Shown: in pieces, positions 1 through 56,294 of the stretch
Layout: every line of letters begins with the position of its first letter
Numbering within the stretch: the first letter of the stretch is position 1
Source of the DNA: a virus
Strand: one strand, 5' to 3'
Virus record (IMG/VR): IMGVR_UViG_3300045988_180880
Span: 64,001-128,000 of that record
Length of the DNA: 64,000 nucleotides
Translations under genes and position numbers: made by a program
Notes under the pieces: generated by a model
The model's input: the letters and a program-made list of their open reading frames with translations, nothing else
Told to the model about the DNA's origin: nothing
The model's database searches: none

Positions 1-354
1 ACAAAGGAGCTTCCCTTATATTACACCCCTTTTCGCTACCGCTAGGGGTGTCTAAGGAAGAAACTTTGAATAGATATATAGAAAATAAACCCAGAAAATG
101 AAGATGTTATAAAGATTTTATATTATTGATTTTCGCCTCTCCAAGGAGGCGAATCTAATCTAAATATTACAACTTTTTTTTAGGATAACATATTCTTTCA
201 TTATTTGTATTTTTACTCCAATCTAAGTTGTTATTTTGCTCTTCTAATAACTTTAAACTCTAATTAATGAAAAAGGGAGACTCCTATGTCTTCATTTTTA
301 TGTAACTGGATTCTGTATTGAATTAAAAAATAACAATTAAAATATTAAATATTT
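1..354 (+). promoter_or_regulatory. Conserved structured leader, copy 1, upstream of helicase-like paralog 1
   Basis: Shares order and sequence blocks with 52863-53232. Blocks include TTGAATA-N-TATATAG, the hairpin TTCGCCTC..GAGGCGAA and TTTTATGTAACTGGATTCTGTATT. Locally GC-rich hairpins ACACCCCT..AGGGGTGT. Confidence 0.5.
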
Positions 355-2397
355 ATGATCAATAAATTACCTGATATCATAGTACCTAGAGGTATTAGAT
401 ATATTTCAGAAATGGATAGTTTATTTAGATTTTATAAACTACCTGTAAAGTGTATAATTAATAAACAATTACCTGGATGTGGATTTACAGAATATTGTTT
501 AAGAGGACCTGAAAATGTAATACTTTGTTCTCCTAGAAAGATGTTACTTAAAAATAAAAAGGATCAACATGGTAGAGACGTTTATTTAGTTATAAACGAG
601 TTGGAAAAAGAAGTACCAATTGATAAAGATCTTTCTAAAATTGATAAATCTATTAATAGAGGAGATCAATTTATGGAGAAATTAGATGAGATGGTTAATG
701 GGAAAAATACTGTCTATAACCGATTAATGAATGAAATTAAAGATTACCTAAATGAGAGAAAATACTTAGGAGATAAACCGTGTAAAATTCTAGTTACTTA
801 CGATTCATATAGAATAGTAAAAGATATATTAACATCTTTAGGTATATTTCAAAGTTTTTACACTATAATAGATGAATTTCAAACTATCTTACATGATGCT
901 AAATTTAAATCAGATACTGAATTAGATTTCTTATATCACTTACATCAATCCCATTCAGCTCTATTTGTTAGTGCAACTCCAATGTTAGAGGAATATTTAA
1001 ACATGCTGGATGAATTTGATGGTTTACCTTATATAGATATGAATTGGGGGAAAGAGGACCCATCTAGAATTCTTAAACCTGCTTTAAAAGTGTTATCTAT
1101 GATGAGTGTAGGAACTAAATTACCAGAAATTATTCAATCCTATAAATCTGGTAACTTTGAAAGTGCTATAAGGATGATTAACGGTTATCCTACTAAAATA
1201 ATTAGCGATGAAGCTGTATTTTATGTAAACTCTGTTAATCATATAGTCAGTATTATAAAGAAATGTGATCTTCAATCAGAGGAGGTTAATATATTATGTA
1301 GTAATACACCAGATAATCTCAAAAAAATTCAAAAAAGATTAGGGAAGAAATTTGTGATAGGAGAGGTACCATTGAAAGGGGTTAAACCTAAGATGTTTAC
1401 ATTTTGTACTAGGACAGTTTACCTAGGGGCAGACTTTTATAGTTTATGCGCTAGATCGTTTATCTTTAGTGATAGTAATATAGACTCTTTAGCTGTTGAT
1501 ATTTCTGAAGATTTACCTCAAATTCTGGGAAGGCAAAGATTGTTTGAAAATCCATGGAAAAACGAAGCTACTTTTTATTATAGATCTACCTGTGATTATA
1601 GAAAGGTTAGTCAGGAGGAGTTTAATAAGGAAATAGAAAGAAAAAAGAAAGCTACTAGTGACTTATTATCTGCATTTAGTACAGCTTTAGATGATGTTAA
1701 GTATAATTTAGCTAAGAAGTATCAAAGTGATGTAAAAAGTAATAATTATAAGAATGATTATATAGCTGTAAACGAACATCAGGGTGGAACTTTAGTACCT
1801 GCTCTTAATAATTTAGTATTGGTTAACGAGATTAGAGCTTTTAAGATACAGCAAATAGATTATAAAGATAGATTTACTGTATTCTCAACAGTTCATAATA
1901 CTTTATCTCCGGATGATATAGTTAATAGAAAGATATCAGATTTTTTAAAGGAATATCAAGAATTAGGTACTTTTAAAGCCAAACTTAAACTTCTTTGTGA
2001 ATATAGTTTTAATGATCAAATTATAGGAGTAGTATTAGATCAGATTGGAGAACATGATAATATTAAGTCTTACTATTTAGCACTCGGACCTCAAAAACTC
2101 AGAGCTTTAGGATATGATAAATATAAGATTGAGAAAGAACTTGGAGTAGTAACATTTAGTCAAGAACTTTTAGTTAATACTATTTATTCAGAATTTAAAG
2201 TTGGAGATAAATTGACATTAGCTAATATAAAATCTAGACTAGAGTATCTTTATCCATCAATTTCCTATACAGCTACTCCTAAGGCAAAAGATTTAGAAAA
2301 TTATTTTGAAGTTAAATTGATATATGTTACAATTTTAGATGAAACTACAGGAAAGAAGAAACAAACAAAGGGTTATGAATTATTAAAAAGAAAATAA
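355..2397 (+). CDS. SF2 helicase-like protein, paralog 1
   Basis: Has DEFQ (DExx box), FVSATP (motif III) and QILGRQR (motif VI). Motif I reads PGCGFTE, so it lacks the Walker-A lysine. Paralogous to 53233-55260 over its full length. Confidence 0.6.
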   Translation: MINKLPDIIVPRGIRYISEMDSLFRFYKLPVKCIINKQLPGCGFTEYCLRGPENVILCSPRKMLLKNKKDQHGRDVYLVINELEKEVPIDKDLSKIDKSINRGDQFMEKLDEMVNGKNTVYNRLMNEIKDYLNERKYLGDKPCKILVTYDSYRIVKDILTSLGIFQSFYTIIDEFQTILHDAKFKSDTELDFLYHLHQSHSALFVSATPMLEEYLNMLDEFDGLPYIDMNWGKEDPSRILKPALKVLSMMSVGTKLPEIIQSYKSGNFESAIRMINGYPTKIISDEAVFYVNSVNHIVSIIKKCDLQSEEVNILCSNTPDNLKKIQKRLGKKFVIGEVPLKGVKPKMFTFCTRTVYLGADFYSLCARSFIFSDSNIDSLAVDISEDLPQILGRQRLFENPWKNEATFYYRSTCDYRKVSQEEFNKEIERKKKATSDLLSAFSTALDDVKYNLAKKYQSDVKSNNYKNDYIAVNEHQGGTLVPALNNLVLVNEIRAFKIQQIDYKDRFTVFSTVHNTLSPDDIVNRKISDFLKEYQELGTFKAKLKLLCEYSFNDQIIGVVLDQIGEHDNIKSYYLALGPQKLRALGYDKYKIEKELGVVTFSQELLVNTIYSEFKVGDKLTLANIKSRLEYLYPSISYTATPKAKDLENYFEVKLIYVTILDETTGKKKQTKGYELLKRK

Positions 2398-3685: not shown

Positions 3686-4818
3686 ATGTCAGTATCTCTT
3701 GAGTTACTAACCGATGAAGCTATCATCGATTATACTAAAAGTGATGGAAAAGATCAAGTTCTATTTAATCATAGAGACTTGGACCTGAAGTACAATGGAA
3801 TACAACCTATCGCCGGTGGAGTCTATGATGTCGATATTTTTGGCTCACCCATGGAAGATAGATGTATTTGTGGAAAAATTCGACAACCCTCTGCTGAACC
3901 TTGTCCTCATTGCGGGGCGAGAGTATTTACAAGAGAAGAGGGATTGAGAAGATTTGCTAGAATTGAACTTCCTTTCTATTACTTGAATGATTTACGTTTT
4001 GATATCTTTAAAGAACTTTTCGAAGATATTTTTAAAGATAGTAAAATTGTATTAGATTTCTTTGGAGACGATCTTCGAAGAAATGGTTATAGTGCAAGAG
4101 GAGCGAAGAAATTAGGTATTAAAGTTTTTGATACCTGCCAGTTCGAATATAATCCAACAACAAAAGAACTAAAAATATCAGAATTTATTACTGATGAAGC
4201 TCTATGTTCTTACGAAGGATTAATTAAAATTATTGAAGAACATTTTCCCGCTCGTCTTACAGAATTTAAAAAATTAATTAATCGGTATTACCTAGTACAA
4301 CCTGCTATGATGAGACCTTTTACTCTCGGAATTAAAAACGGGAAAAAAGTAATGGGATCTCATAAACTTAGTATTTGGTACTCTATTATTATCAGACTTT
4401 GTTGCGTAGAAGATAAAAAATCTAATGACTTGAACTATGAGGAAGTTACATCTAAATTTAATACCCCTGGAGAAAGAGTTAGATATACAGCCCTTCTACG
4501 TGCTCTCCTAAATGCTGGAAAAAAAGAAGCTACAGCACTACTTAATACATCTAAAGAAAATCTAGCACGTGACTTGTATTCTGTCCGTACTAAAAATTCT
4601 GCTAGATGCCCAATTATACCTAGTACTACATTAGCTATCGATGAAATCTCTGTTCCAATACATATCGCTTATGAAATGTGTCGGGAAGGTTTCTTAGATT
4701 ACTTAATGAAAGAGCTGAATTTTACCAAAAACGAAGCACTCAAAGCAACAAAAGAAGAATATAATAATCCGGAAACTCTGAAAATGTTTAAAGAGTATGC
4801 GGAAAAACAAATCGTACT
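3686..4818 (+). CDS. rpoC: RNA polymerase beta' homologue, exon 1
   Basis: Zinc motif CICGK..CPHCG and RFARIELPFYY resemble the bacterial beta' N-terminus. The 5' splice site is set by P1 CGTACT/GGTACG with a terminal U.G. Confidence 0.85.
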
Positions 4819-4976
4819 AATGGTTTCCTAATTGGTACGTTAGGTGTGAATCCTAGAATATATAATGTGAATTATGTATTAAATTTTGTGTATTGCTGGG
4901 AGGATCTAAATATCTAATCAGCAGTTGAAGATAATTTATTTATACGAATTTATAATAATTAAAATACTAGAATATT

Positions 4977-22860: not shown

Positions 22861-22867
22861 TAAATAG

Positions 22868-22941
22868 TGGGCCCAGCCAGGCTTGAACTGACGACCTTCT
22901 GATTATGAGTCAGCTTCTCTAACCAACTGAGATATGGGCCC
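22868..22941 (-). tRNA. tRNA with CAU anticodon (Met, or Ile if lysidine-modified)
   Basis: Reverse complement GGGCCCATATCTCAGTTGGTTAGAGAAGCTGACTCATAATCAGAAGGTCGTCAGTTCAAGCCTGGCTGGGCCCA folds as a cloverleaf. The TPsiC arm is GGTCGTCAGTTCAAGCC. Confidence 0.9.
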
Positions 22942-22959
22942 TGTTATAATTATGTCTAG

Positions 22960-23050
22960 TATCGGGAGGGGAGCTCGAATCCCCACGGGTCTTATTTTTC
23001 TGCCCAAAACATTTTAAGTGTTTCTTGTCTACCTATTCCAACATCCCGAC
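22960..23050 (-). tRNA. tRNA-Leu (UAA) with long variable arm
   Basis: Reverse complement GTCGGGATGTTGGAATAGGTAGACA..CTTAAAA..GGGGATTCGAGCTCCCCTCCCGATA. Anticodon loop CTTAAAA. Extended variable arm. Confidence 0.85.
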
Positions 23051-32821: not shown

Positions 32822-34441
32822 TTAACCTTCTACTTTAGTTTCGGAAATATTATCATCAATGATTGTACAATCAATTAAGAGAATCATTGACGCTGCTGAA
32901 ATAGAATTTTCAAGAGCTACTCGAAGAGATTTAGAACTATCTAAGATCCCCTCCTCAAGTAAATTACCATACTTTCGAGTCTTAGCATTATATCCAATTC
33001 CTGGTTTAGATGATTTAACCTTTTCTAGAACTACTTCTCCAGAAACTCCTGAATTGTCTGCAATTGTTTTAAGAATTACTGGAAGACTTGAGAATACAAT
33101 TTCTGCACCCTCTACTTCATCTCCAACTAAAGATTTCCAGAATGTCTTATCTTTCTTCACTTCTAATGATCCTTTGTAATAGATATAACCACTTCCTAAA
33201 GAACATCCTTCAGCAATAGCACTTTTAGATGCTAGAATAGAATCTTCAATAGTTTGTTTAAGGTTCTGTTTTTCAGTTTCAGAAGCTCCTCCAGCTCTCA
33301 CTACTGCAATACCTCCACTAAGATTTGCTACTCGTTTCGCAAATTTAGTTTTATCATAATCTGATATTCCAGGATCTGTAAGTTTGGTGCTAAGAATTTC
33401 TACCCTTTCAGCAATCTCTTTAGAATCACCACCACCTTCATAGATAATACATGAATCTCTAGAAATTACAACTTTCTTAGCTACTCCAAGATCCTCTTTT
33501 GTTGCTTGTGTGACTGATAATCCGTTCTCAGGAGAAATATATTTACCGCCAGTTAAAATTGAAATATCTGCCATAATATTTTTCCTTGAATCTCCGAAAT
33601 CAATACCTTTTACAACACAACATCTAATTGCACCTTGAAGAGTATTCATAACAAGAGTTGTATTTACTACTTCATCAATATCATCTACTATAAATAAGAA
33701 TGGGCGTCCAGTAGGTACAAGCTGTTCCATTAACGGAAGAATTTGCTGTACACTAGATAATCTTTCTCCTACTACAATTACATAAGGATCTTCCATTACA
33801 CAAGTTCCATCAGTAGGATTTGTAACATACTGTGGAGAAGCCCAACCACGATCGAGTTTCATTCCAGTAGTTACATCAATAGTAGTTTCAAGACCACTAG
33901 AAAAATCAGCTGTAATAATACCAAGCATTCCAACTTTCTCCATACATTCAACTACCAGATTTCCAATGGCCGGATCATTATTGGCTGAAATAGTTGCCAC
34001 TTTTCTGATCTTTTCCATATCATCATTTACTGGAATTGAATTATTTTTGATATACTCAGCCATCCATTTTCCGGCCTTAAGCATACCAGATTTCACCTCA
34101 TTTACATTAGCTCCAGTTCGTAATGCTTTTTGTCCTTTTTCACACATTTCTTTGATTAATAGTGAAGTTGAACTTGTACCGTCACCTGCTAATCTTTCTG
34201 TTTGAGCGGCAGCATTTTTTACAAAGATAGCTCCTGTATTCTGAAGTTGATTCTTAAATGAAATCGACTTAGCAACAGTAGCTCCATCTCTTGACACCTC
34301 TGGACCTGTAAATCCTGAAATACATACGGCTTTACCTGACGGGCCGAGTGTTTTCTTAATTGCCTCTACTGATTTTTTTACACCTTCAATAATTTCGGCC
34401 TGAGTTTCAAAGCCGTGATTAATAATTTTTCCTTCTGACAT
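32822..34441 (-). CDS. groEL: Chaperonin GroEL (Cpn60) homologue
   Basis: TLGPSGK, DGATVAKSI, AGDGTSST, VVRAGGASE. About 539 aa. Confidence 0.9.
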   Translation of the reverse strand: MSEGKIINHGFETQAEIIEGVKKSVEAIKKTLGPSGKAVCISGFTGPEVSRDGATVAKSISFKNQLQNTGAIFVKNAAAQTERLAGDGTSSTSLLIKEMCEKGQKALRTGANVNEVKSGMLKAGKWMAEYIKNNSIPVNDDMEKIRKVATISANNDPAIGNLVVECMEKVGMLGIITADFSSGLETTIDVTTGMKLDRGWASPQYVTNPTDGTCVMEDPYVIVVGERLSSVQQILPLMEQLVPTGRPFLFIVDDIDEVVNTTLVMNTLQGAIRCCVVKGIDFGDSRKNIMADISILTGGKYISPENGLSVTQATKEDLGVAKKVVISRDSCIIYEGGGDSKEIAERVEILSTKLTDPGISDYDKTKFAKRVANLSGGIAVVRAGGASETEKQNLKQTIEDSILASKSAIAEGCSLGSGYIYYKGSLEVKKDKTFWKSLVGDEVEGAEIVFSSLPVILKTIADNSGVSGEVVLEKVKSSKPGIGYNAKTRKYGNLLEEGILDSSKSLRVALENSISAASMILLIDCTIIDDNISETKVEG

Positions 34442-34902: not shown

Positions 34903-36384
34903 TTATTTTTGCTCTTGTTGTTTGTAATATTCTTCAAGTTTATCAGGATATTTTTCTTTAAAGTCTGAAAATTTAAACCAATATGAATTATTATATAAGG
35001 ATTCAGTATTTAATTTTTTATCTTTATTTAAGATTCTCCATACATTCTGGTGAAATAACCCATCTTCTCTAACATTTCCAATACTTTTATATATTTTTAT
35101 AATCTCATGATTCCGATTAGTTCTTATTATTTCATTTCTAAATAACTTAACAACTAACTTTGGTAAATTATTTGTTTCTTTATTAAGATAGTATTCATCT
35201 AATTTATCTGGATATTCCCATTCATCTAGGCTAGTCCAATAATAATCAAAGTATTTACCTATAGCAGAATAAGATGTCCTTGTTTTATTACGATTTACTG
35301 CAGCAGATACTGAAGATTCAGAAAATCCATCTTTTATAACATCTTTTACTGAATCATAGATTTTATATATTAAATAGTCTTTATCATGACAAATAATCTT
35401 TTTACTTCTCTTAGTTTCTCTAGGAATATATTTTATTATATTAGAAATTGCTCCTTTTTCATAAAATTTTTGAATACTATTCGAATATAAATTAATAGCA
35501 TCGTTGTAATACATCCAGTAATATTCTCCATATAATGTTTTATTCTCTATACTCCTTCTAAGATACTCTGGATTAAATCCATCTATTTTAATAGAGGATA
35601 TTGTATTATATATTTTACAAACATTGAAGTTTTTATCAAAACATACTATCTTTGTTCCGGAATCATTATATTCTAATACAGTATTTCTTTCTAAAGGTGT
35701 TAAATTTAATTTTGGTAGATCTTTTAATGAATAAAATTCATTTAATTTTTCTGGATAATTAATTTTAAAATCTTCTAATAAAGAAAATTTATATCCTCTA
35801 GAAGTATTGTAATCTCCTTTTACAGTACTACTAACAGAAGTGTGATTAAAACCATCCATTTCAGTTTCTGAAATACTACTATATACTCTATAAACTTTAT
35901 TATTTAAATCATGACAAACAACAGGATATGAGATAGAACGTATATATTTTTCTCTTAACTCAGCAGAAAGGGTAATATTATATTTCTCTATTACTAATTT
36001 TCGCTCGGATGTATATACTGAATTTACATTAATCATACAAAATAGAGCAGATAATATTTTATTATTATCTGATTGAATTCTATATAATAAAACGTGTGCT
36101 ATTATATGTTCTAAAGCAGAAAGAAGTACGTAATTATAGTTCTCATCTTCACCTGACATACACCTAGGTAAAATATGATGTTTCTCTGTATAAAATTCGA
36201 TTTTTCCTCGTTTTAATCCTCTCTGAAGGGCTTGATCTATTAATTTACAGTAATCTTCTAGATATTCCTCTTCAGTTCTCCCATCTAGAATCATCTCATT
36301 AAAATCTTTTTCATCTAGGTAACTACTATACTTCATCCCTGGATTTTCGATAGATTTTATACCTTCTATTGGTTTAGATTTCAT
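34903..36384 (-). CDS. Free-standing HNH homing endonuclease with four C-terminal repeats
   Basis: TEKHHILPRCMSGEDENYN..H. Four ~60-aa repeats (I.CHD.....YKIY.S....DGF). Confidence 0.75.
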   Translation of the reverse strand: MKSKPIEGIKSIENPGMKYSSYLDEKDFNEMILDGRTEEEYLEDYCKLIDQALQRGLKRGKIEFYTEKHHILPRCMSGEDENYNYVLLSALEHIIAHVLLYRIQSDNNKILSALFCMINVNSVYTSERKLVIEKYNITLSAELREKYIRSISYPVVCHDLNNKVYRVYSSISETEMDGFNHTSVSSTVKGDYNTSRGYKFSLLEDFKINYPEKLNEFYSLKDLPKLNLTPLERNTVLEYNDSGTKIVCFDKNFNVCKIYNTISSIKIDGFNPEYLRRSIENKTLYGEYYWMYYNDAINLYSNSIQKFYEKGAISNIIKYIPRETKRSKKIICHDKDYLIYKIYDSVKDVIKDGFSESSVSAAVNRNKTRTSYSAIGKYFDYYWTSLDEWEYPDKLDEYYLNKETNNLPKLVVKLFRNEIIRTNRNHEIIKIYKSIGNVREDGLFHQNVWRILNKDKKLNTESLYNNSYWFKFSDFKEKYPDKLEEYYKQQEQK

Positions 36385-38413: not shown

Positions 38414-39511
38414 TTAAAGATTTTCTTCATTAATAACTATATCTTGAATATCACAATACTTATAGTAGTTATGTAATAGTTCATCTCTTTGTTCGAATCC
38501 TTTTGTATATACCGGGATTCTTTTCGGTATTTTAGGTTTTAGTGCAAGAACGTTCATATTAGTTCCTCTTGCTGTTCGTCCTAGTTGTTGAAGAACCGAT
38601 CCAGCGTTGATATTAGAAACTAGTAATATATTTTCTAATCCAGGAAGGTCTAGTGCTCTAAATCCTGCGGCGGTACTAGGAATTATATCTACCATTCCAT
38701 TTTTAATATATTCGCATGATTGTTGAAGATCTAGGTTTGTTTTATTTCCAGACAAGTCATAATAAATATATCCTTCGCCGCAAATTAAGAGCACTCTAAA
38801 TACTCCAATAAAAAAGTTATCTATCCAAGTTGAAATAATATTATTTAAATTATTTATTGGGATATATAATTTAGGATATTTTTTTGCTATCTTTACAATC
38901 AATTCACATACTCCAGGATCAACCCAAATTTTTGACATTATTGTATTATAGACATTATTATCCTCATTAAAATCCTCTTCTGTAAATTTAATATTATTTA
39001 AAGCGATAGTATTTATGTGGATACTATTTATTTTCAGACTAGTAGGCATTCTATAAACTAATGCTGGTCCGAAATATTTAATTAAGTCCTTGTTTCTTAC
39101 TACTGTTTCCGTAATTCCCTGTGCAAATGTGATCATAACTCCTGAATCTCGATCTGCAGTTCCAGAAAATCCGTACATAACTTCAGCATTCACTAGTCTA
39201 TCATATATCCATTCACCAGAAGGATTAATAGTATATTCTACTTCATCTACTAGAACCCAATCGAATTTCTTAAGTTTCTCTTCCTCTAAAATACATAGGT
39301 CTGGATCTTTTATTTTCTTTTGATTTAGAAATCCTGAAGTAATTATACATCCAAGATCTCCATCTATTGATGTAGGTAATTTACCACCAAATCTAGACTC
39401 GTATCTTTTTACAATTTCATCTTTCGCTTTTTTTCCTGGAGTTATAACTAATACTTTTTTTCCAAGTTCATTATGTGCATAGTTTATAAGAGTTGCTATA
39501 GTTTCAGTTTT
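38414..39511 (-). CDS. SF2 (DExH-type) helicase, exon 2
   Basis: KTETIATL.., VLVDEVEY (motif II), GFSGTA (III), QQLGRTARG (VI). Confidence 0.8.
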   Translation of the reverse strand, partial: KTETIATLINYAHNELGKKVLVITPGKKAKDEIVKRYESRFGGKLPTSIDGDLGCIITSGFLNQKKIKDPDLCILEEEKLKKFDWVLVDEVEYTINPSGEWIYDRLVNAEVMYGFSGTADRDSGVMITFAQGITETVVRNKDLIKYFGPALVYRMPTSLKINSIHINTIALNNIKFTEEDFNEDNNVYNTIMSKIWVDPGVCELIVKIAKKYPKLYIPINNLNNIISTWIDNFFIGVFRVLLICGEGYIYYDLSGNKTNLDLQQSCEYIKNGMVDIIPSTAAGFRALDLPGLENILLVSNINAGSVLQQLGRTARGTNMNVLALKPKIPKRIPVYTKGFEQRDELLHNYYKYCDIQDIVINEENL

Positions 39512-40539
39512 CATTTTGTTATCTCATAAGTTTTTTATCTTATAATTCTTATTTTATTTAAATAAGATCGGCATATATATTCTTCTAATTAATAGAAGTA
39601 GGACACTCATGGGAAGATTATCTCACCTCCTATGCTCTACACTACAAAATTTATATTTGTAGATCGGTATTAGATTTAACCCATCCTTCACCGAATTTGT
39701 CCTATAATAAAATTAAGTATTTTTACTTAACTCGGCAAATTTTTTATATTTTCTCTCTAAATAAACAGTTGCATTTTTATATAATAAATTTCCTACACCA
39801 ACGGCTTTACTACATTCACTAACTATTTGATAATTATTAATTCCTTTCTTAGATGATCTCGTTGATAATAATTTTCCAAACTTATTTTTAAAAATATCCT
39901 GAATTTTAGATAGAAATTCTTTTGTTCCTAAAATATCTATCCTTAATTTATTTCTACTAGTATTCGTAATACTTCCGTCTCCATCTATATATCCCCTAAT
40001 AAATGAATATACTAAATCATTATTAGAAAATATTTTTAATGATGGGAATACTAATATTAACGACTTATTAGGTACACAACCTAATTCAATTAATCTATCG
40101 TGAAAATGTTTGTCGGTTATTATACATCTACATCTAAAATACTCTTTATTATTTATAGAAGCCGCTTTACTTACCGTTATAGATCTTTTATTTTTAAGGA
40201 ATTTATTAAATTTCTCTAAATGTTCTTTATCACTAGCTTTTAATGATAACTCTACTGAATTATTATATTTACTATTAACAAATCCATCTGCATATAAAAA
40301 TCCTAACCAATAGGCTTTTTCATCAGAATCTATATTATCAAATACTGTATTATCAAAATATAATTCTTCTTTTGGAATTGTTAATTTATATTTTTTTAAA
40401 TAATTATATAAAGTACTTTTAGAAACATTTAATTCTTTAAGAAGATCTTTACATCTATAACCTTTTTCAATCAAAGAAGTAAGATCTTCTATTTTTAACT
40501 GTTTTGATTTTGTCATGTTATTTAGATTTAAAATTATTT
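39512..40539 (-). mobile_element. Group I intron, type B-like, with LAGLIDADG ORF in the P1 loop
   Basis: Follows TATGGT. The guide GCCG and P2 hairpin overlap the last ORF codons. Core ACAAATTCGGTGAAGG / AATACCGATC. The covariant stem TAGGAC..GTCCTA replaces AGTAAGT..ACTTACT. Confidence 0.7.
39713..40516 (-). CDS. LAGLIDADG homing endonuclease
   Basis: Two motifs: YWLGFLYADGFV and FIRGYIDGDGSI. N-terminal HTH-like segment. Confidence 0.85.
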   Translation of the reverse strand: MTKSKQLKIEDLTSLIEKGYRCKDLLKELNVSKSTLYNYLKKYKLTIPKEELYFDNTVFDNIDSDEKAYWLGFLYADGFVNSKYNNSVELSLKASDKEHLEKFNKFLKNKRSITVSKAASINNKEYFRCRCIITDKHFHDRLIELGCVPNKSLILVFPSLKIFSNNDLVYSFIRGYIDGDGSITNTSRNKLRIDILGTKEFLSKIQDIFKNKFGKLLSTRSSKKGINNYQIVSECSKAVGVGNLLYKNATVYLERKYKKFAELSKNT

Positions 40540-52824: not shown

Positions 52825-52860
52825 AGAACCAAGGATTTTATTTCCTTGGTTTCTTTTTTC
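52825..52860 (+). terminator. Rho-independent terminator
   Basis: AAGAACCAAGGA..TCCTTGGTTTCTT followed by TTTTC. Confidence 0.7.
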
Positions 52861-52862
52861 TT

Positions 52863-53232
52863 GATACATTTTTATGAGGACTAAGGAACCCTTTATCATA
52901 CCTTCCGTTCACCACTAAAGGGTTCACTCCAGGGCCCTACGGGCTCTAGATTGAATAAACTATATAGGGAATAAATAGATTATAAGAATTCGATCTCCTC
53001 CCAAAGGGAGATCGAATATATTAAGTGGAACTTTTTTAATCGAAAATAGATTTACTTTATATATGGTCAAATATGTCCTATTTAAATGACAATTTTGCGC
53101 TTCTACTAACTTTAAATCCTTACAATTGAATGAAGATTATAAAGGGTATCCCTAGTCTTCGATTTTATGTAACTGGATTCTGTATTAAAAAGAATCTATA
53201 AATAATAAATTAATTAAAAACTTTATAAAATT
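52863..53232 (+). promoter_or_regulatory. Conserved structured leader, copy 2
   Basis: Same block order as 1-354. Hairpins GAACCCTTT..AAAGGGTTC and TTCGATCTCC..GGAGATCGAA. Identical TTTTATGTAACTGGATTCTGTATT. Confidence 0.5.
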
Positions 53233-55260
53233 ATGACTAAAGATAAAATTATTGTACCTAGAGGAATTAGGTATATAGGAGAGTGGAAAGATTTCTGCTT
53301 TTCTAATTTTCTAAGTAAATGTATTATTAATAAACAATTACCTGGATGTGGTTTTACTGAATACTGTATTAATGGTCCTGAGAATGTAATACTTTGTTCT
53401 CCTAGAAAAATGCTTTTAAAGAATAAATATGATCAACATAAAAATGATATTTATTTAGTAATTAATGAGATGGATAAAGATCCAGATGTGGATAAGGATA
53501 TTAGTAAGGATATTAAAAATCCTAATTTAGATGAAGATTATCAAGAAAAGAAAGATAATTCTGAGATCTATGAAAGATTATATAGAGAAATTGATACTTA
53601 TACCTATCAAAGATATCTAAATAATCAACCAGCTAAGATTCTAGTAACATATGATTCATATAGAATCGTTAAAGATATTCTTGAAAAAATTAGAATATTT
53701 GATAGGTTTATGACTATAGTAGATGAGTTTCAGAGTATTTTACACGATTCTAGATTTAAAAGCAATACTGAAATGGGATTTTTGGAATATCTTAAACAAT
53801 CCCCAACAGCATACTTTGTATCAGCTACTCCTATGATGGATGAATATCTAGAAATGTTAGATGAATTTAAGGATCTCCCATATTATGAATTAGATTGGTA
53901 TAGTTCAGATTCTAGTAGAGTAATCAAACCTTCATTAAAAGTACTTACAATGAAATCAGTAGGTACAAAAGCAGAAGAAGTAATTCAATCCTATCTATCA
54001 GGAGATTTTGAAGAAGTTGTTGTTCTTAGAGATAGTGTACCTACTAGAGTAATATCAGACGAAGCAGTATTTTATGTAAACAGTGTTAATCATATTATAT
54101 CTATCATCAAGAAAAATGAATTAACTCCAGAACAATGTAATATATTATGTAGCAATACTCCAGAAAATCTAAAGAGAATACAAAAGAAATTAGGAAAAGG
54201 TTTTACTATAGGAGAAGTACCTCTTAAAGGAGTTAAACCTAGGATGTTTACCTTTTGTACTAGAACGGTTTACTTAGGAGCAGATTTTTATAGTTTATGT
54301 GCACGTAGTTTTATATTCTCAGATTCTAATTCAGACTGTTTAGCAGTTGATATTGCAGAAGATCTTCCACAGATACTAGGTAGACAAAGGTTGTTTAGTA
54401 ATCCTTGGAACAATTCAGCAACTTTTTATTATCGTACTACAGCAGATTATAGAGAAATGAAAGAGTCTGATTTTCAGAAAATTTTAAATAAGAAAACAGA
54501 AACTACAGAAAACTTATTATCAGTATATAATAAAGGAACTGATGAAGAAAGATATGATTTAGCGAAAAATTATTTATATGTAGCTAAGTCAGCAAGTTAT
54601 AAAGATAATTATGTAGCAGTAAATAAAATAATTACCAGTACAGGTAATATTATTTTAAAACCTGTTATTAATCAGCTTGTAAAAGTTAATGAGATTCGAG
54701 CATTTAAAATTCAGCAAATTGATTATAAAGATAGATTTAGTGTATTTAGTAGTGTACACTCTAAACTTACTCCTGATGATATAGTAAATAGGGATGTAAC
54801 TAGATTTTTCTGTATTTATGATACTTATACTACAATTCATGATAAACTTAAAATGTTATGTGAATATCCTGTTTCTAGAGAAGTGATAGATATAGTTCTT
54901 GGACAAATAGCAGATTCTGATGAAGTTAAGTCTTATTATCTGTCATTAGGTCCTACTAAACTTAAAGCGTTATCATACAATTCTCATAAAATAAAGAAAG
55001 AGCTTGGAATAGTAACATTTAGTCCAGAATTACTTAATAATACAATTCATCAAAACTTTAATCCAGGAGAGAAATATACACTATCTAATCTTAAAGCAAA
55101 ACTAGGAGATTTATATTCTAGTATTTCTTATACTGCAGTGCCAAAAGCTAATGATATTTTAAATTACTTTGAGGTAAAAGAATATAAATCTACTGAGGTT
55201 GTAGATGGGGAAAAGAAAAGAGTAAGAGGATATGAACTATTAAAAAGAAAGGATAATTAA
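53233..55260 (+). CDS. SF2 helicase-like protein, paralog 2
   Basis: Same motifs as 355-2397: PGCGFTE, DEFQ, SATP, QILGRQR. Confidence 0.6.
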   Translation: MTKDKIIVPRGIRYIGEWKDFCFSNFLSKCIINKQLPGCGFTEYCINGPENVILCSPRKMLLKNKYDQHKNDIYLVINEMDKDPDVDKDISKDIKNPNLDEDYQEKKDNSEIYERLYREIDTYTYQRYLNNQPAKILVTYDSYRIVKDILEKIRIFDRFMTIVDEFQSILHDSRFKSNTEMGFLEYLKQSPTAYFVSATPMMDEYLEMLDEFKDLPYYELDWYSSDSSRVIKPSLKVLTMKSVGTKAEEVIQSYLSGDFEEVVVLRDSVPTRVISDEAVFYVNSVNHIISIIKKNELTPEQCNILCSNTPENLKRIQKKLGKGFTIGEVPLKGVKPRMFTFCTRTVYLGADFYSLCARSFIFSDSNSDCLAVDIAEDLPQILGRQRLFSNPWNNSATFYYRTTADYREMKESDFQKILNKKTETTENLLSVYNKGTDEERYDLAKNYLYVAKSASYKDNYVAVNKIITSTGNIILKPVINQLVKVNEIRAFKIQQIDYKDRFSVFSSVHSKLTPDDIVNRDVTRFFCIYDTYTTIHDKLKMLCEYPVSREVIDIVLGQIADSDEVKSYYLSLGPTKLKALSYNSHKIKKELGIVTFSPELLNNTIHQNFNPGEKYTLSNLKAKLGDLYSSISYTAVPKANDILNYFEVKEYKSTEVVDGEKKRVRGYELLKRKDN

Positions 55261-55262
55261 TT

Positions 55263-56294
55263 ATGATATATTTGATTAAGAGTGCAGGTTATGATGAGAA
55301 TGAAAATTTAATTCATCTTCTCAAAATAGGTTATACAGAGGATAATAATAGAGATAGAAGATTTATGTCTTACAAACTTCATAATCCTACTTGTAAAATT
55401 TTATATGAAATTCCCAGTCTTTCAGAAGATATAGAAAAGAGAATTCAATATAAGTTTAGAGATTATAAGTATAAAGAATATGGAAATGAGTGGTTTTATT
55501 ATAATGATGATGTAATAAATTTCTTTAGGGATATAGATAAAGTAGATTTGGAATCTCTTCCAAAGTCTCCTATGAGTGAAAAGAGGGATTATAAGAGATT
55601 TAGAAAAATGGTTAAAGAATTTGTTCCTTGGATTATTGCTGATATAAAGGATAGAAATGAATATGTAAAGAAGATAATAGATGAATTAGGTAGTAATTTA
55701 AATTCTATTCAGGATATATTAGATTATGTGATAAAGGATTACGGAGAGGATTCTATCTCTAAGTATCTTGAAGTTACTAAGAAAAAAGAGATGAAAGTGT
55801 ATAGTGAAGATTCAAAGATTAATAGTGAAATAATAAAGTTTATTAATACTTATGAAACTCTTACTACTATCTATGATAAACTTAAAATGTTATGTGAATA
55901 TCCAGTCTCTAAGGAAGTTATTCAGATAGTATTAGATCAAATAGCAGATAGTGATGAGATTAAGTCTTATTATTTGCTTTTAGGTCCTGATAGGTTGAAA
56001 AAATTACATTATAATATTACAAATATTAGAAGAGAATTAGGTATTGTAACCTTTAGTCCTGAATTATTAAATAATACTATTCATCAAAATTTTAATCCAG
56101 GTGAGAAGTATACATTAGCTAATTTAAAGGCTAAACTTGGAGATCTATACTCTTCTATTTCTTATACTGCAGTTCCTAAGGCCAATGATATTTTAGAGTA
56201 TTTCGAAGTAAAAGAGGTTCAAAATACTATGTTAGTAGATGGAGTAAAGAAGCGAATTCGTAGTTATGAATTATTAAAAAGAAAGGATAATTAA
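55263..56294 (+). CDS. T5orf172-like domain fused to the C-terminal domain of the helicase-like paralogs
   Basis: N-terminal IYLIKSAG....LLKIGYTED..R. The last ~150 aa are near-identical to the C-terminus of 53233-55260. Confidence 0.6.
   Translation: MIYLIKSAGYDENENLIHLLKIGYTEDNNRDRRFMSYKLHNPTCKILYEIPSLSEDIEKRIQYKFRDYKYKEYGNEWFYYNDDVINFFRDIDKVDLESLPKSPMSEKRDYKRFRKMVKEFVPWIIADIKDRNEYVKKIIDELGSNLNSIQDILDYVIKDYGEDSISKYLEVTKKKEMKVYSEDSKINSEIIKFINTYETLTTIYDKLKMLCEYPVSKEVIQIVLDQIADSDEIKSYYLLLGPDRLKKLHYNITNIRRELGIVTFSPELLNNTIHQNFNPGEKYTLANLKAKLGDLYSSISYTAVPKANDILEYFEVKEVQNTMLVDGVKKRIRSYELLKRKDN

Follow-up and report, generated by a model that had tools for sequence, protein, structure and literature searches.

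Long 5' leaders made up of several hairpins lie directly upstream of the replication-initiator genes of several plasmids: pT181 repC, pIP501 repR, R1 repA/CopT and ColIb-P9 repZ. In these leaders mutually exclusive pairings determine whether the hairpin ahead of the start codon (a terminator in pT181 and pIP501) can form; an antisense RNA is also produced, which leaves both strands structured. In herpes simplex virus (HSV), oriS* is the hairpin form of an origin. The origin-binding protein UL9 has been described (PMC12543377, PMC13261067), and for phages the T5 D2 protein is an example of a UL9-like helicase put forward as an initiator (PMC3632103). The DNA considered here, called the window, comprises positions 64,001-128,000 of the IMG/VR virus record IMGVR_UViG_3300045988_180880, a 64,000-nt, AT-rich (29% GC) stretch of a large phage that encodes a GroEL-like protein, an NAD-ligase-like protein, a DHH phosphoesterase, an HNH endonuclease and two tRNAs. 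Two open reading frames (ORFs) of the window, 355-2397 (680 aa) and 53233-55260 (675 aa), encode helicase-like proteins with 62% identity. Judged by comparison with the sequences of related contigs, the non-coding stretches ahead of them (copy A and copy B) are members of a previously undescribed family of folded elements, 280-490 nt long. This new structured-element family is linked to origin-binding-type helicase paralogues in huge phages. The reading favoured here, which may well be right but stops somewhat short of probable, takes the element to be a structured RNA leader, made from the sense strand, of the UL9-like helicase gene, with riboswitch-like alternative pairing.

The regions upstream of both helicase-like ORFs align with their blocks in the same order, and thus bear out the original prediction of a duplicated structured region, 53 kb apart, ahead of paralogous helicase-like genes. 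The identical box that had been reported in both copies, TTTTATGTAACTGGATTCTGTATT (24 nt), has exactly two occurrences in the window (296-319 and 53163-53186); with up to three mismatches allowed there are still only these two sites, where shuffles expect none. Since synonymous sites are saturated at 62% protein identity, alignable non-coding DNA with a perfect 24-mer would be under selection or gene conversion, and we infer that the similarity of the two copies is a product of one or the other. The limits first given to the copies (1-354 and 52863-53232) need correction at both ends. Related contigs place the start of copy A 5 nt before position 1, after GTAACTTATTTAT, so that the window edge falls between GAGGA and CAAAGG, and the element proper ends at GTCTTC (window 293 in copy A, 53160 in copy B), leaving the box outside. 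The description of each copy as a GC-rich island fits the 5' halves, with GC contents of 0.36 and 0.41 versus 0.29 for the window, but not the 3' halves, which are more AT-rich than average (0.21-0.23). Both window copies fold far better than shuffles (z = -5.1 and -4.2).

A protein-guided scan of IMG/VR found 73 loci with relatives 63-100% identical, several per contig of 230-378 kb, and a search with the box alone matched at least 58 stretches. From huge-phage IMG/VR contigs, at least 80 distinct upstream regions were reduced to 39 representatives below 96% identity, with element lengths of 282-494 nt (individual loci are cited by L numbers). All members open with G(T/A)(A/C)(A/C)C-N7-8-(T/C)G followed directly by GA(G/A)GAC(A/T)(A/C)AGGA, the window starting 5 nt inside, and all close with TCC(T/C)(T/A)(A/T)GTCTTC, followed in turn by a T-run and the box core AACTG(G/A)A(T/C)TCT(G/C/T)TATT. 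The distance from the box to the ATG is 44-65 nt (106 loci), the box hairpin being followed by 45-65 AU-rich bases up to the start codon, and no Shine-Dalgarno sequence precedes the ATG of the helicase-like gene. The element always lies on the strand of that gene, between an upstream terminator and the ORF, and precedes every copy of it, of which there are 7-9 per phage genome of ~370-400 kb. Box and 5' start motif were seen only ahead of the helicase-like gene family (window plus 131 loci); elsewhere in the window neither rises above chance, so that they are no general phage promoter or operator motif. Rfam 15 at gathering threshold returned for the window one tRNA only and no family that fits the element. 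Permissive scans of the L001 and L049 leaders gave chance matches of 12-19 bits against gathering scores of 39-103, and a DNA search of GenBank phages found nothing. The large ornate RNAs GOLLD, ROOL and HEARO resemble the element in being multi-helix, in occurring in phage or metagenomic DNA and in being linked to particular neighbour genes. However, their covariance models do not match it even at E up to 10, its architecture and gene association differ, and it is present in multiple diverged copies per genome.

The ends of the element are joined by a long-range closing helix, P0, formed by a 5' strand, GAGGACAAAGGAGCTTCCC, and a 3' strand, GGGAGACTCCTATGTCTTC; this main architectural feature was not part of the original prediction. 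In the minimum-free-energy (MFE) folds of both window copies the first ~20 nt pair with the last ~20 nt, and all 39 representatives form P0 in their MFE folds. RNAalifold recovers it on 26 full-length sequences and, on a two-arm alignment of 28 distinct leaders, finds 15 P0 pairs, five of them with both sides changed. Standard pairs fill 95.2% of P0 cells, against 88.5 ± 0.9% in shuffled alignments (0 of 500 reach the observed value) and 42-56% when the partners are slid, and the covariation score is 0.295 versus 0.182. The position at which GACA[A/C]AGG faces CCT[A/G]TGTC was rejected as a covarying pair, since all four combinations occur. Inner P0 exists in at least six complementary versions across the family:

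GAGCTTCCC opposite GGGAGACTC
GA-ACCCTTTAT opposite ATAAAGGGTATC
GA-ACCT opposite AGGTATC
GATACC opposite GGTATC
ACCCATGTG opposite (T)ATGTGGGT
GAGC-TTCCC opposite GGGAATCCTC

Within this closure, the predicted parts of the two window copies and the features adjoining them are as follows.

1-16, plus strand: P0 5' strand of copy A, ACAAAGGAGCTTCCCT, incomplete because of the window edge; the full strand, GAGGACAAAGGAGCTTCCCTT, begins 5 nt ahead of position 1 and in the MFE fold of the full element (L001) pairs with 273-293
23-51, plus strand: hairpin P2 of copy A, ACACCCCT (23-30) with AGGGGTGT (44-51) around the conserved loop CGCTACCGCT; four stem variants in the family
56-81, plus strand: region of copy A with the segment GGAAGAAACTTTG (56-68), which as read from the sequence can pair locally with the P0 5' strand to give the alternative helix P1
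67-81, plus strand: single-stranded motif TGAATAGATATATAG of copy A, conserved in all types
132-153, plus strand: GC-rich hairpin P3 of copy A, TTCGCCTC (132-139) with GAGGCGAA (146-153)
169-231, plus strand: long-range helix P4 of copy A, ACAACTT (169-175) with AAGTTGT (225-231), enclosing a T-run (174-181) and an AT-rich stretch of ~45 nt
234-272, plus strand: conserved TTTTGCTCTTCT motif and CTT..AAG mini-stem region of copy A; distant lineages have TTGCGCTTCNGAAG
273-293, plus strand: P0 3' strand of copy A, AAGGGAGACTCCTATGTCTTC, with an alternative self-fold of GGAGAC with GTCTTC; this local hairpin and the T-run scored terminator-like
294-324, plus strand: U/T-run (294-300), box (296-319) and hairpin P6 of copy A, GATTC (309-313) with GAATT (320-324), loop TGTATT
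355-2397, plus strand: superfamily 2 (SF2) helicase-like gene of copy A, 680 aa, with a predicted UL9/origin-binding-protein-like fold
52826-52852, plus strand: terminator-like hairpin of the gene upstream of copy B, 24 nt before copy B
52876-52896, plus strand: P0 5' strand of copy B, GAGGACTAAGGAACCCTTTAT, from the MFE fold, with the flank motif GATACATTTTTAT ahead of it at 52863-52875
52917-52925, plus strand: AAAGGGTTC of copy B, homologue of the P2 3' arm, able to pair with the P0 5' strand
52931-52947, plus strand: hairpin AGGGCCC/GGGCTCT of copy B, after the AAAGGGTTC segment
52989-53016, plus strand: hairpin P3 of copy B, TTCGATCTCC (52989-52998) with GGAGATCGAA (53007-53016)
53026-53104, plus strand: P4-equivalent region of copy B with a T-run (53032-53037), an AT-rich stretch and TTTTGCGCTTCT (53093-53104); it belongs to the class GTGGAAC ... 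AAATGACA without P4 pairing
53139-53160, plus strand: P0 3' strand of copy B, ATAAAGGGTATCCCTAGTCTTC
53163-53196, plus strand: box (53163-53186) and hairpin P6 of copy B, GATTCT (53176-53181) with AGAATC (53191-53196)
53233-55260, plus strand: paralogous helicase-like gene of copy B, 675 aa

The internal helices vary in sequence while keeping their pairing. P2 is found in four stem variants (ACACCCCT/AGGGGTGT, ACACCTCT/AGAGGTGT, ATCCCCTC/GAGGGGAT and CACCCCTCT/AGAGGGGT) around the constant loop CGCTACCGCT; the MAFFT alignment shifts register between types here, so that pair counts made by the tools understate P2. P3 keeps a fixed position with at least five unrelated GC-rich stem sequences across the family. 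P4 places one arm just ahead of the T-run and the other just ahead of a conserved TTTTGC, with an AT-rich stretch of ~50 nt between them, and more than 12 arm sequences occur, among them ACAACTT, GATACAT, TTGATTACTT, AACAGAACTTT, TGTCACTTT, TTTCACATTT, ATGAGAACTT and GCACTTT. Cognate P4 arms pair at -6.9 kcal/mol versus -3.8 ± 0.3 for permuted arms, and 0 of 5000 permutations reach the observed value. The box itself supplies the 5' arm and loop of the small hairpin P6, just after P0, whose arms covary (GGATTC..GAATC, GAACTC..GAGTTC, ACTGGATT..AATCCAGT and CTG-CTCT..AGAGCAG) around a conserved TGTATT loop; since loop length varies, an alignment with fixed columns does not allow P6 pairs to be counted. 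Pairing of the box with an upstream GGGAATCC-like segment was considered and rejected, as that segment does not follow the GAACTC variant of the box. The leaders are mosaics, in which one P4 class occurs with different 5' domains and tandem duplications are found internally. In L053 and L067 (~2650-2950), for example, a module running from the P4 region via TTTTGC and CCTTTCAAT is tandemly duplicated within the leader.

The alignments thus show a conserved, covarying multi-helix element with predicted paired ends, and the expectation that pairing would be kept through sequence change holds with more copies aligned, in the five double-change pairs of P0, the cognate-arm test of P4 and the variants of P2. 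All four hairpins named at the outset are present, including GAACCCTTT (52886-52894) with AAAGGGTTC (52917-52925), although only one of the two compensatory comparisons drawn between the copies is sound: the second pair (P3) is homologous, whereas the first sets non-homologous 5' arms against each other, as GAACCCTTT of copy B belongs to the P0 5' strand and the change is therefore not a clean compensatory one. Because the stems of P2 and P6 vary while their loops are kept, the comparison argues for an element that folds as a single strand rather than one made of duplex protein-binding sites. With regard to which strand, the sense strand has 40 G.U versus 8 A.C cells in P0. Facing an invariant GTCTTC, GAGGAC and GAAGAC replace one another repeatedly, the reciprocal change is never seen, and on the opposite strand ~88% of P0 pairs would be standard. 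Over the whole element neither folding energy nor G.U counts separated the strands, and assignment by these measures was rejected.

The paired ends also bear on whether the element is instead a miniature inverted-repeat transposable element (MITE) or the edge of a selfish module, with the P0 arms as terminal inverted repeats and the similarity of the copies due to transposition. The P0 arms are formally inverted repeats of ~20 bp that end a unit of 280-490 bp, and TTTATG and GTAAC stand on both flanks in types A and B. However, the flanking repeats do not covary, and a target-site duplication was rejected because the 5' flank varies among types whereas the 3' flank is constant. In addition, the internal helices covary, the element is found only ahead of the helicase-like gene family, at fixed orientation and distance, and the association is kept in lineages at 40-57% protein identity. 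A mobile origin therefore seems very improbable, and the selfish-module boundary entertained in the original prediction falls with it, for want of a target-site duplication or of any copy away from the gene; its packaging-signal candidate likewise found no support. Of the functions first listed, a 5' untranslated region or riboregulator and a replication signal are both retained here as live readings.

The favoured model proposes that the element is a folded single-stranded domain, most likely sense-strand RNA, which forms the 5' leader of each helicase gene copy and may serve as a cis-acting switch or processing module. The P0 5' strand may pair locally instead, as P1. In type A the partners would be CAAAG.GAG.CTTCC (window 6-18) and GGAAG.AAA.CTTTG (56-68); this pairing covaries in L035 (CAGG.AG.TCTCC with GGAGA.AAAA.CCTG) and is degraded in the L008, L010 and L022 variants. 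In copy B the P0 5' strand, via GAACCCTTT, likewise has a local alternative partner in AAAGGGTTC. The P0 3' strand may in turn fold on itself, in most types into a hairpin followed by a U-run that would resemble a terminator: type A has GGAGAC/GTCTTC followed by ATTTTTAT, scored terminator-like, type B has GAAGAT..AGGG-TAT-CCCT..GTCTTC, and the distant L135 has analogous self-hairpins. As both P0 strands have local alternatives, one of them terminator-like, formation of P0 would permit read-through or expression, and the alternatives would shut the gene off. The proposed logic is that of a riboswitch closing helix with its expression platform, and the long imperfect P0 duplex could also be a natural RNase III site. 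The obvious candidate effector would be the encoded helicase-like protein, by feedback; an antisense RNA, as in the plasmid rep leaders, is another possible one.

With riboswitch and T-box leaders the element shares the closing helix whose 3' strand may form a local hairpin with a U-run, and the conserved unpaired motifs within variable helices. However, no Rfam riboswitch or T-box model fits it, and its terminator is weak or absent in some types; unlike small-molecule aptamers it is 282-494 nt long and modular, with hairpins gained and lost. The plasmid rep leaders are alike in being long, multi-hairpin and directly ahead of a replication-initiator-type gene, and an antisense-RNA system, which structures both strands, would explain the absence of an overall strand bias in the element. 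In contrast to those systems, promoter-like matches on the minus strand are at chance level here (one weak sigma-70-like match per copy, as in shuffles). The phage element is also 3-5x larger and closed by a long-range helix, and its gene is of the SF2 UL9-like type rather than a plasmid Rep, with 7-9 cassettes per genome.

Several results weigh against a transcribed leader with a terminator switch. The terminator-like hairpin is weak, a terminator scan does not call one in copy B, and the L019 and L022 types have CTATGTCTT/AAGACATAG with no U-tract, a non-terminator hairpin. RNAalifold on the 3' segment alone yields no consensus local hairpin, so that the local hairpins P5a and P5 are not claimed as conserved. 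No convincing promoter was found upstream, where the gap between the preceding terminator and the element is only 12-30 nt, and sigma-70-like matches are not enriched over shuffles. P4 is absent from about a quarter of the leaders, including copy B. The two strands do not differ in mean MFE (-92.4 kcal/mol on both; sense more stable in 20 of 39), in whole-element G.U counts (344 versus 358) or in P4 scores (-8.47 versus -8.42). The deepest-conserved motif, CTTCNGAAG, is a 9-bp palindrome unable to form an RNA hairpin, which hints at recognition at the DNA level. Finally, an origin would fit two things better than a leader does: the resemblance of the protein to replication origin binders and the even spacing of the cassettes.

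The closed architecture may alternatively mark a stable non-coding RNA in its own right, cut out of the transcript at the P0 duplex or terminated at the U-run, which would form an RNA-protein particle with the helicase-like protein while the gene itself starts at the box. Paired ends followed by a U-run are like those of a processed or terminated RNA, and, as T(T/A)TTTATG stands on both P0 flanks, there could conceivably be a second start site immediately ahead of the box, in which case the invariant box hairpin would be the mRNA 5' end. The structural matches of the protein include DEAD-box RNA helicases with specific structured RNA targets (DbpA, Mss116), and tandem elements with no gene between them occur in L094/L010. 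Yet the U-run hairpin is weak and not universal, no promoter was identified, the closest fold relatives of the protein are DNA origin binders rather than RNA helicases, and the window holds no copy of the element away from the gene. An independent RNA of this kind is accordingly regarded as unlikely. The tandem arrangement just mentioned (L094 10371-10824, equal to L010 1873-2330) consists of a B-type element with box, directly followed by an A-type element with box and gene. A conserved leader peptide (ATGAGGAC..., open for 14-16 codons in copies A and B) was also considered and rejected, as TCG or TTG stands there in other types, and TGAATAAGATATAT was rejected as a marker motif, since it is not distinctive in AT-rich DNA.

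The neighbouring protein belongs to a family of 1790 representatives at 50% clustering, with the SF2 motifs SPRK, DEFQ, SATP and QILGRQR invariant. Motif I reads PGCGFTE family-wide (residues 40-46 of the window proteins), so that the Walker-A lysine is replaced by phenylalanine and ATPase competence is in doubt. The two window proteins have no match in Pfam or PHROGs. Among 24 diverse members some match Pfam DEAD or ResIII, four carry the archaeo-eukaryotic primase (AEP) domain BT4734-like_N and one PriCT_1, an AEP-primase family described previously (PMC5862659); Pfam Herpes_ori_bp matches neither the window proteins nor these 24 members. Sequence-profile searches of PDB gave chance matches only. 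A single-sequence AlphaFold2 model was unusable (predicted local distance difference test score, pLDDT, of 37), whereas a model from a 22-sequence alignment reached a pLDDT of 72. In a fold search with the latter the best PDB match was herpesvirus UL9 (E 1e-7, template-modelling score ~0.3), followed by DEAD-box, RecQ/WRN and Hel308 helicases, and in BFVD it matched mainly proteins of herpesviruses and giant viruses, of the 'replication origin-binding protein' and helicase-primase kinds. On this model the protein is SF2 helicase-like, with a predicted fold that best matches UL9 and other viral origin-binding proteins.

The cassettes of element and gene are also distributed regularly. The 368-kb IMG/VR contig 3300045988_180413 (L003, L033, L062, L068, L077, L092, L099) carries seven, on both strands, at ~29, 107, 155, 224, 269, 322 and 363 kb, and only 0.2% of random placements have a minimum gap as large as its 34 kb (P ~0.002). 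The 376-kb GenBank contig JAGAYY010000025.1 (L141-L152), binned with a Bacilli metagenome-assembled genome (MAG) from deer omasum and encoding proteins 39-45% identical to those of the window, carries nine at intervals of 26-60 kb, with a coefficient of variation of the gaps of 0.21 (P ~4e-5 for random placements as regular). A 371-kb contig binned with Mycoplasmatota has at least four. These ~370-kb multi-cassette contigs (loci L136-L152) sit inside MAGs labelled Mycoplasmatota or Bacilli, labels that may either point to the host or result from misbinning of low-GC phage DNA.

Long upstream non-coding regions are kept by homologues at 48-57% protein identity (L134, L135, L147). L147 (57%) has the full architecture. 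L134 and L135 (48-50%) have 940 and 533 nt of non-coding DNA, respectively. L135 has a P4-like helix (GTCGTAT-Tn ... ATACGA, then AATTTGCGCTTC) and, in its MFE fold, a closing helix GGGAGGCG/CGCCTCCC unrelated in sequence to P0 (z = -3.7). L134 keeps ATTTTGCTG, CTGTATT and a GGGAGG/CCTCCC closure, with an overall z of only -1.6; at ~1730-1800 of this locus, just upstream of its 600-nt structured region, a tRNA-like T-arm sequence, GGGTTCGAGTCCCGC, and a terminator were also noted. The deepest-conserved motif, TTGCGCTTC(N)GAAG, is a 9-bp palindrome in distant lineages and a stem with a 14-nt loop in the window lineage. Single-copy relatives that are more distant (26-34% identity) occur in Bacteroidales genomes. 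In Acinetobacter phage Phab24 a distant homologue lies directly downstream of a 930-nt non-coding region at a divergent junction (L133 1453-2383, equal to 39208-40138), whose repeated palindromes, ATATTGTT-N6-AACAATGGATA, make it look origin-like.

These observations raise the main alternative, that the element is, or contains, a replication origin, with the adjacent gene encoding its cognate origin-binding helicase, so that each huge phage genome would hold 7-9 evenly spaced origin-plus-initiator cassettes. Its inverted repeats, hairpins and AT-rich T-tract would then be binding sites, extruded or single-stranded hairpins (as in HSV oriS*) and an unwinding element, or, in a variant, a transcript through the region could be a structured primer or activator RNA, as with ColE1 RNA II or the T4 origins. 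Such an origin is a possibility we hold with considerable doubt. It is above all the even spacing of the cassettes on the 368-kb and 376-kb contigs that speaks for it, joined by the UL9-like fold with its origin-binding and helicase-primase matches in BFVD, the distant sequence relatives with AEP-primase domains (BT4734-like_N, PriCT_1), the region ahead of the Phab24 homologue and the proposal that UL9 relatives in phage T5 are initiators (PMC3632103). Within the element, the AT-rich 3' half with its T-tract and flanking inverted repeats, the folding without strand bias and the conserved DNA palindrome CTTCNGAAG point the same way. Like the HSV origins oriS and oriL, the region combines inverted repeats, an AT-rich centre and one-strand hairpin potential, and its neighbouring protein is modelled as a UL9-like SF2 fold.

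The likeness to HSV has limits. HSV boxes are conserved motifs of ~10 bp around an 18-bp AT spacer, whereas the arms of the element are either hypervariable (P4) or, where conserved and inverted (P0), 280-490 nt apart. HSV origins are not adjacent to UL9, but the element adjoins a UL9-like gene, and the phage protein, unlike HSV UL9, lacks the Walker-A lysine and a match to Herpes_ori_bp. Loops that stay constant while their stems vary freely, a 20-bp helix that bridges 280-490 nt and the excess of G.U in P0 on one strand are traits of folded RNA rather than of duplex boxes. As the arms of P4 are hypervariable, shuffled between paralogue types and absent from a quarter of copies, they are not conserved recognition boxes. 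The window copies (0.3 and 53 kb) also lie off the switch points of gene orientation and GC skew (~22, 48 and 59 kb). That phage chromosomes of ~370-400 kb replicate from 7-9 even origins, in a eukaryotic or archaeal manner and each with its own paralogous UL9-like helicase, the folded element itself serving as origin through strand-specific hairpins or a structured primer or activator RNA, is likewise conceivable but rather doubtful. The structured RNA leader is retained as the favoured reading, and the two readings, leader and origin, are compatible and not exclusive.

Other genes of the window were noted in passing. A protein with a T5orf172 (GIY-YIG-like) domain (55263-56294, plus strand) begins 3 nt past the stop of the copy B gene, while the downstream neighbour of copy A differs. 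An ORF of 381 aa (3686-4831, plus strand) matches a zinc ribbon and the Rpb1 domain 2 of RNA polymerase weakly and below threshold (E ~0.01 each) and could be a fragment of a phage RNA polymerase. The two tRNA genes, tRNA-Met(CAT) and tRNA-Leu(TAA), are adjacent (22867-23050, minus strand) at a switch of gene orientation and GC skew, and the gene for the GroEL-like chaperonin (32822-34441, minus strand; PHROG 5725, E 9e-120) adjoins a 493-aa HNH/homing-endonuclease-like ORF (34903-36384, minus strand).

If the element acts as RNA, it would represent a new class of large structured RNA, 280-490 nt long with a closing helix, not represented in Rfam and naturally variable enough to be modelled, which would be tied to the expression of replication-type helicases in huge phages of gut and rumen microbiomes. 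If the elements are origins, they would be the first indication of a phage genome with many regularly spaced origins, each with a paralogous initiator, and it would become directly testable how huge phages copy 400 kb quickly. Either way, the UL9-like proteins that lack the Walker-A lysine, together with their cognate upstream element, make up a defined and widespread module, the proteins of which are now annotated as 'hypothetical' or 'RNA helicase'.

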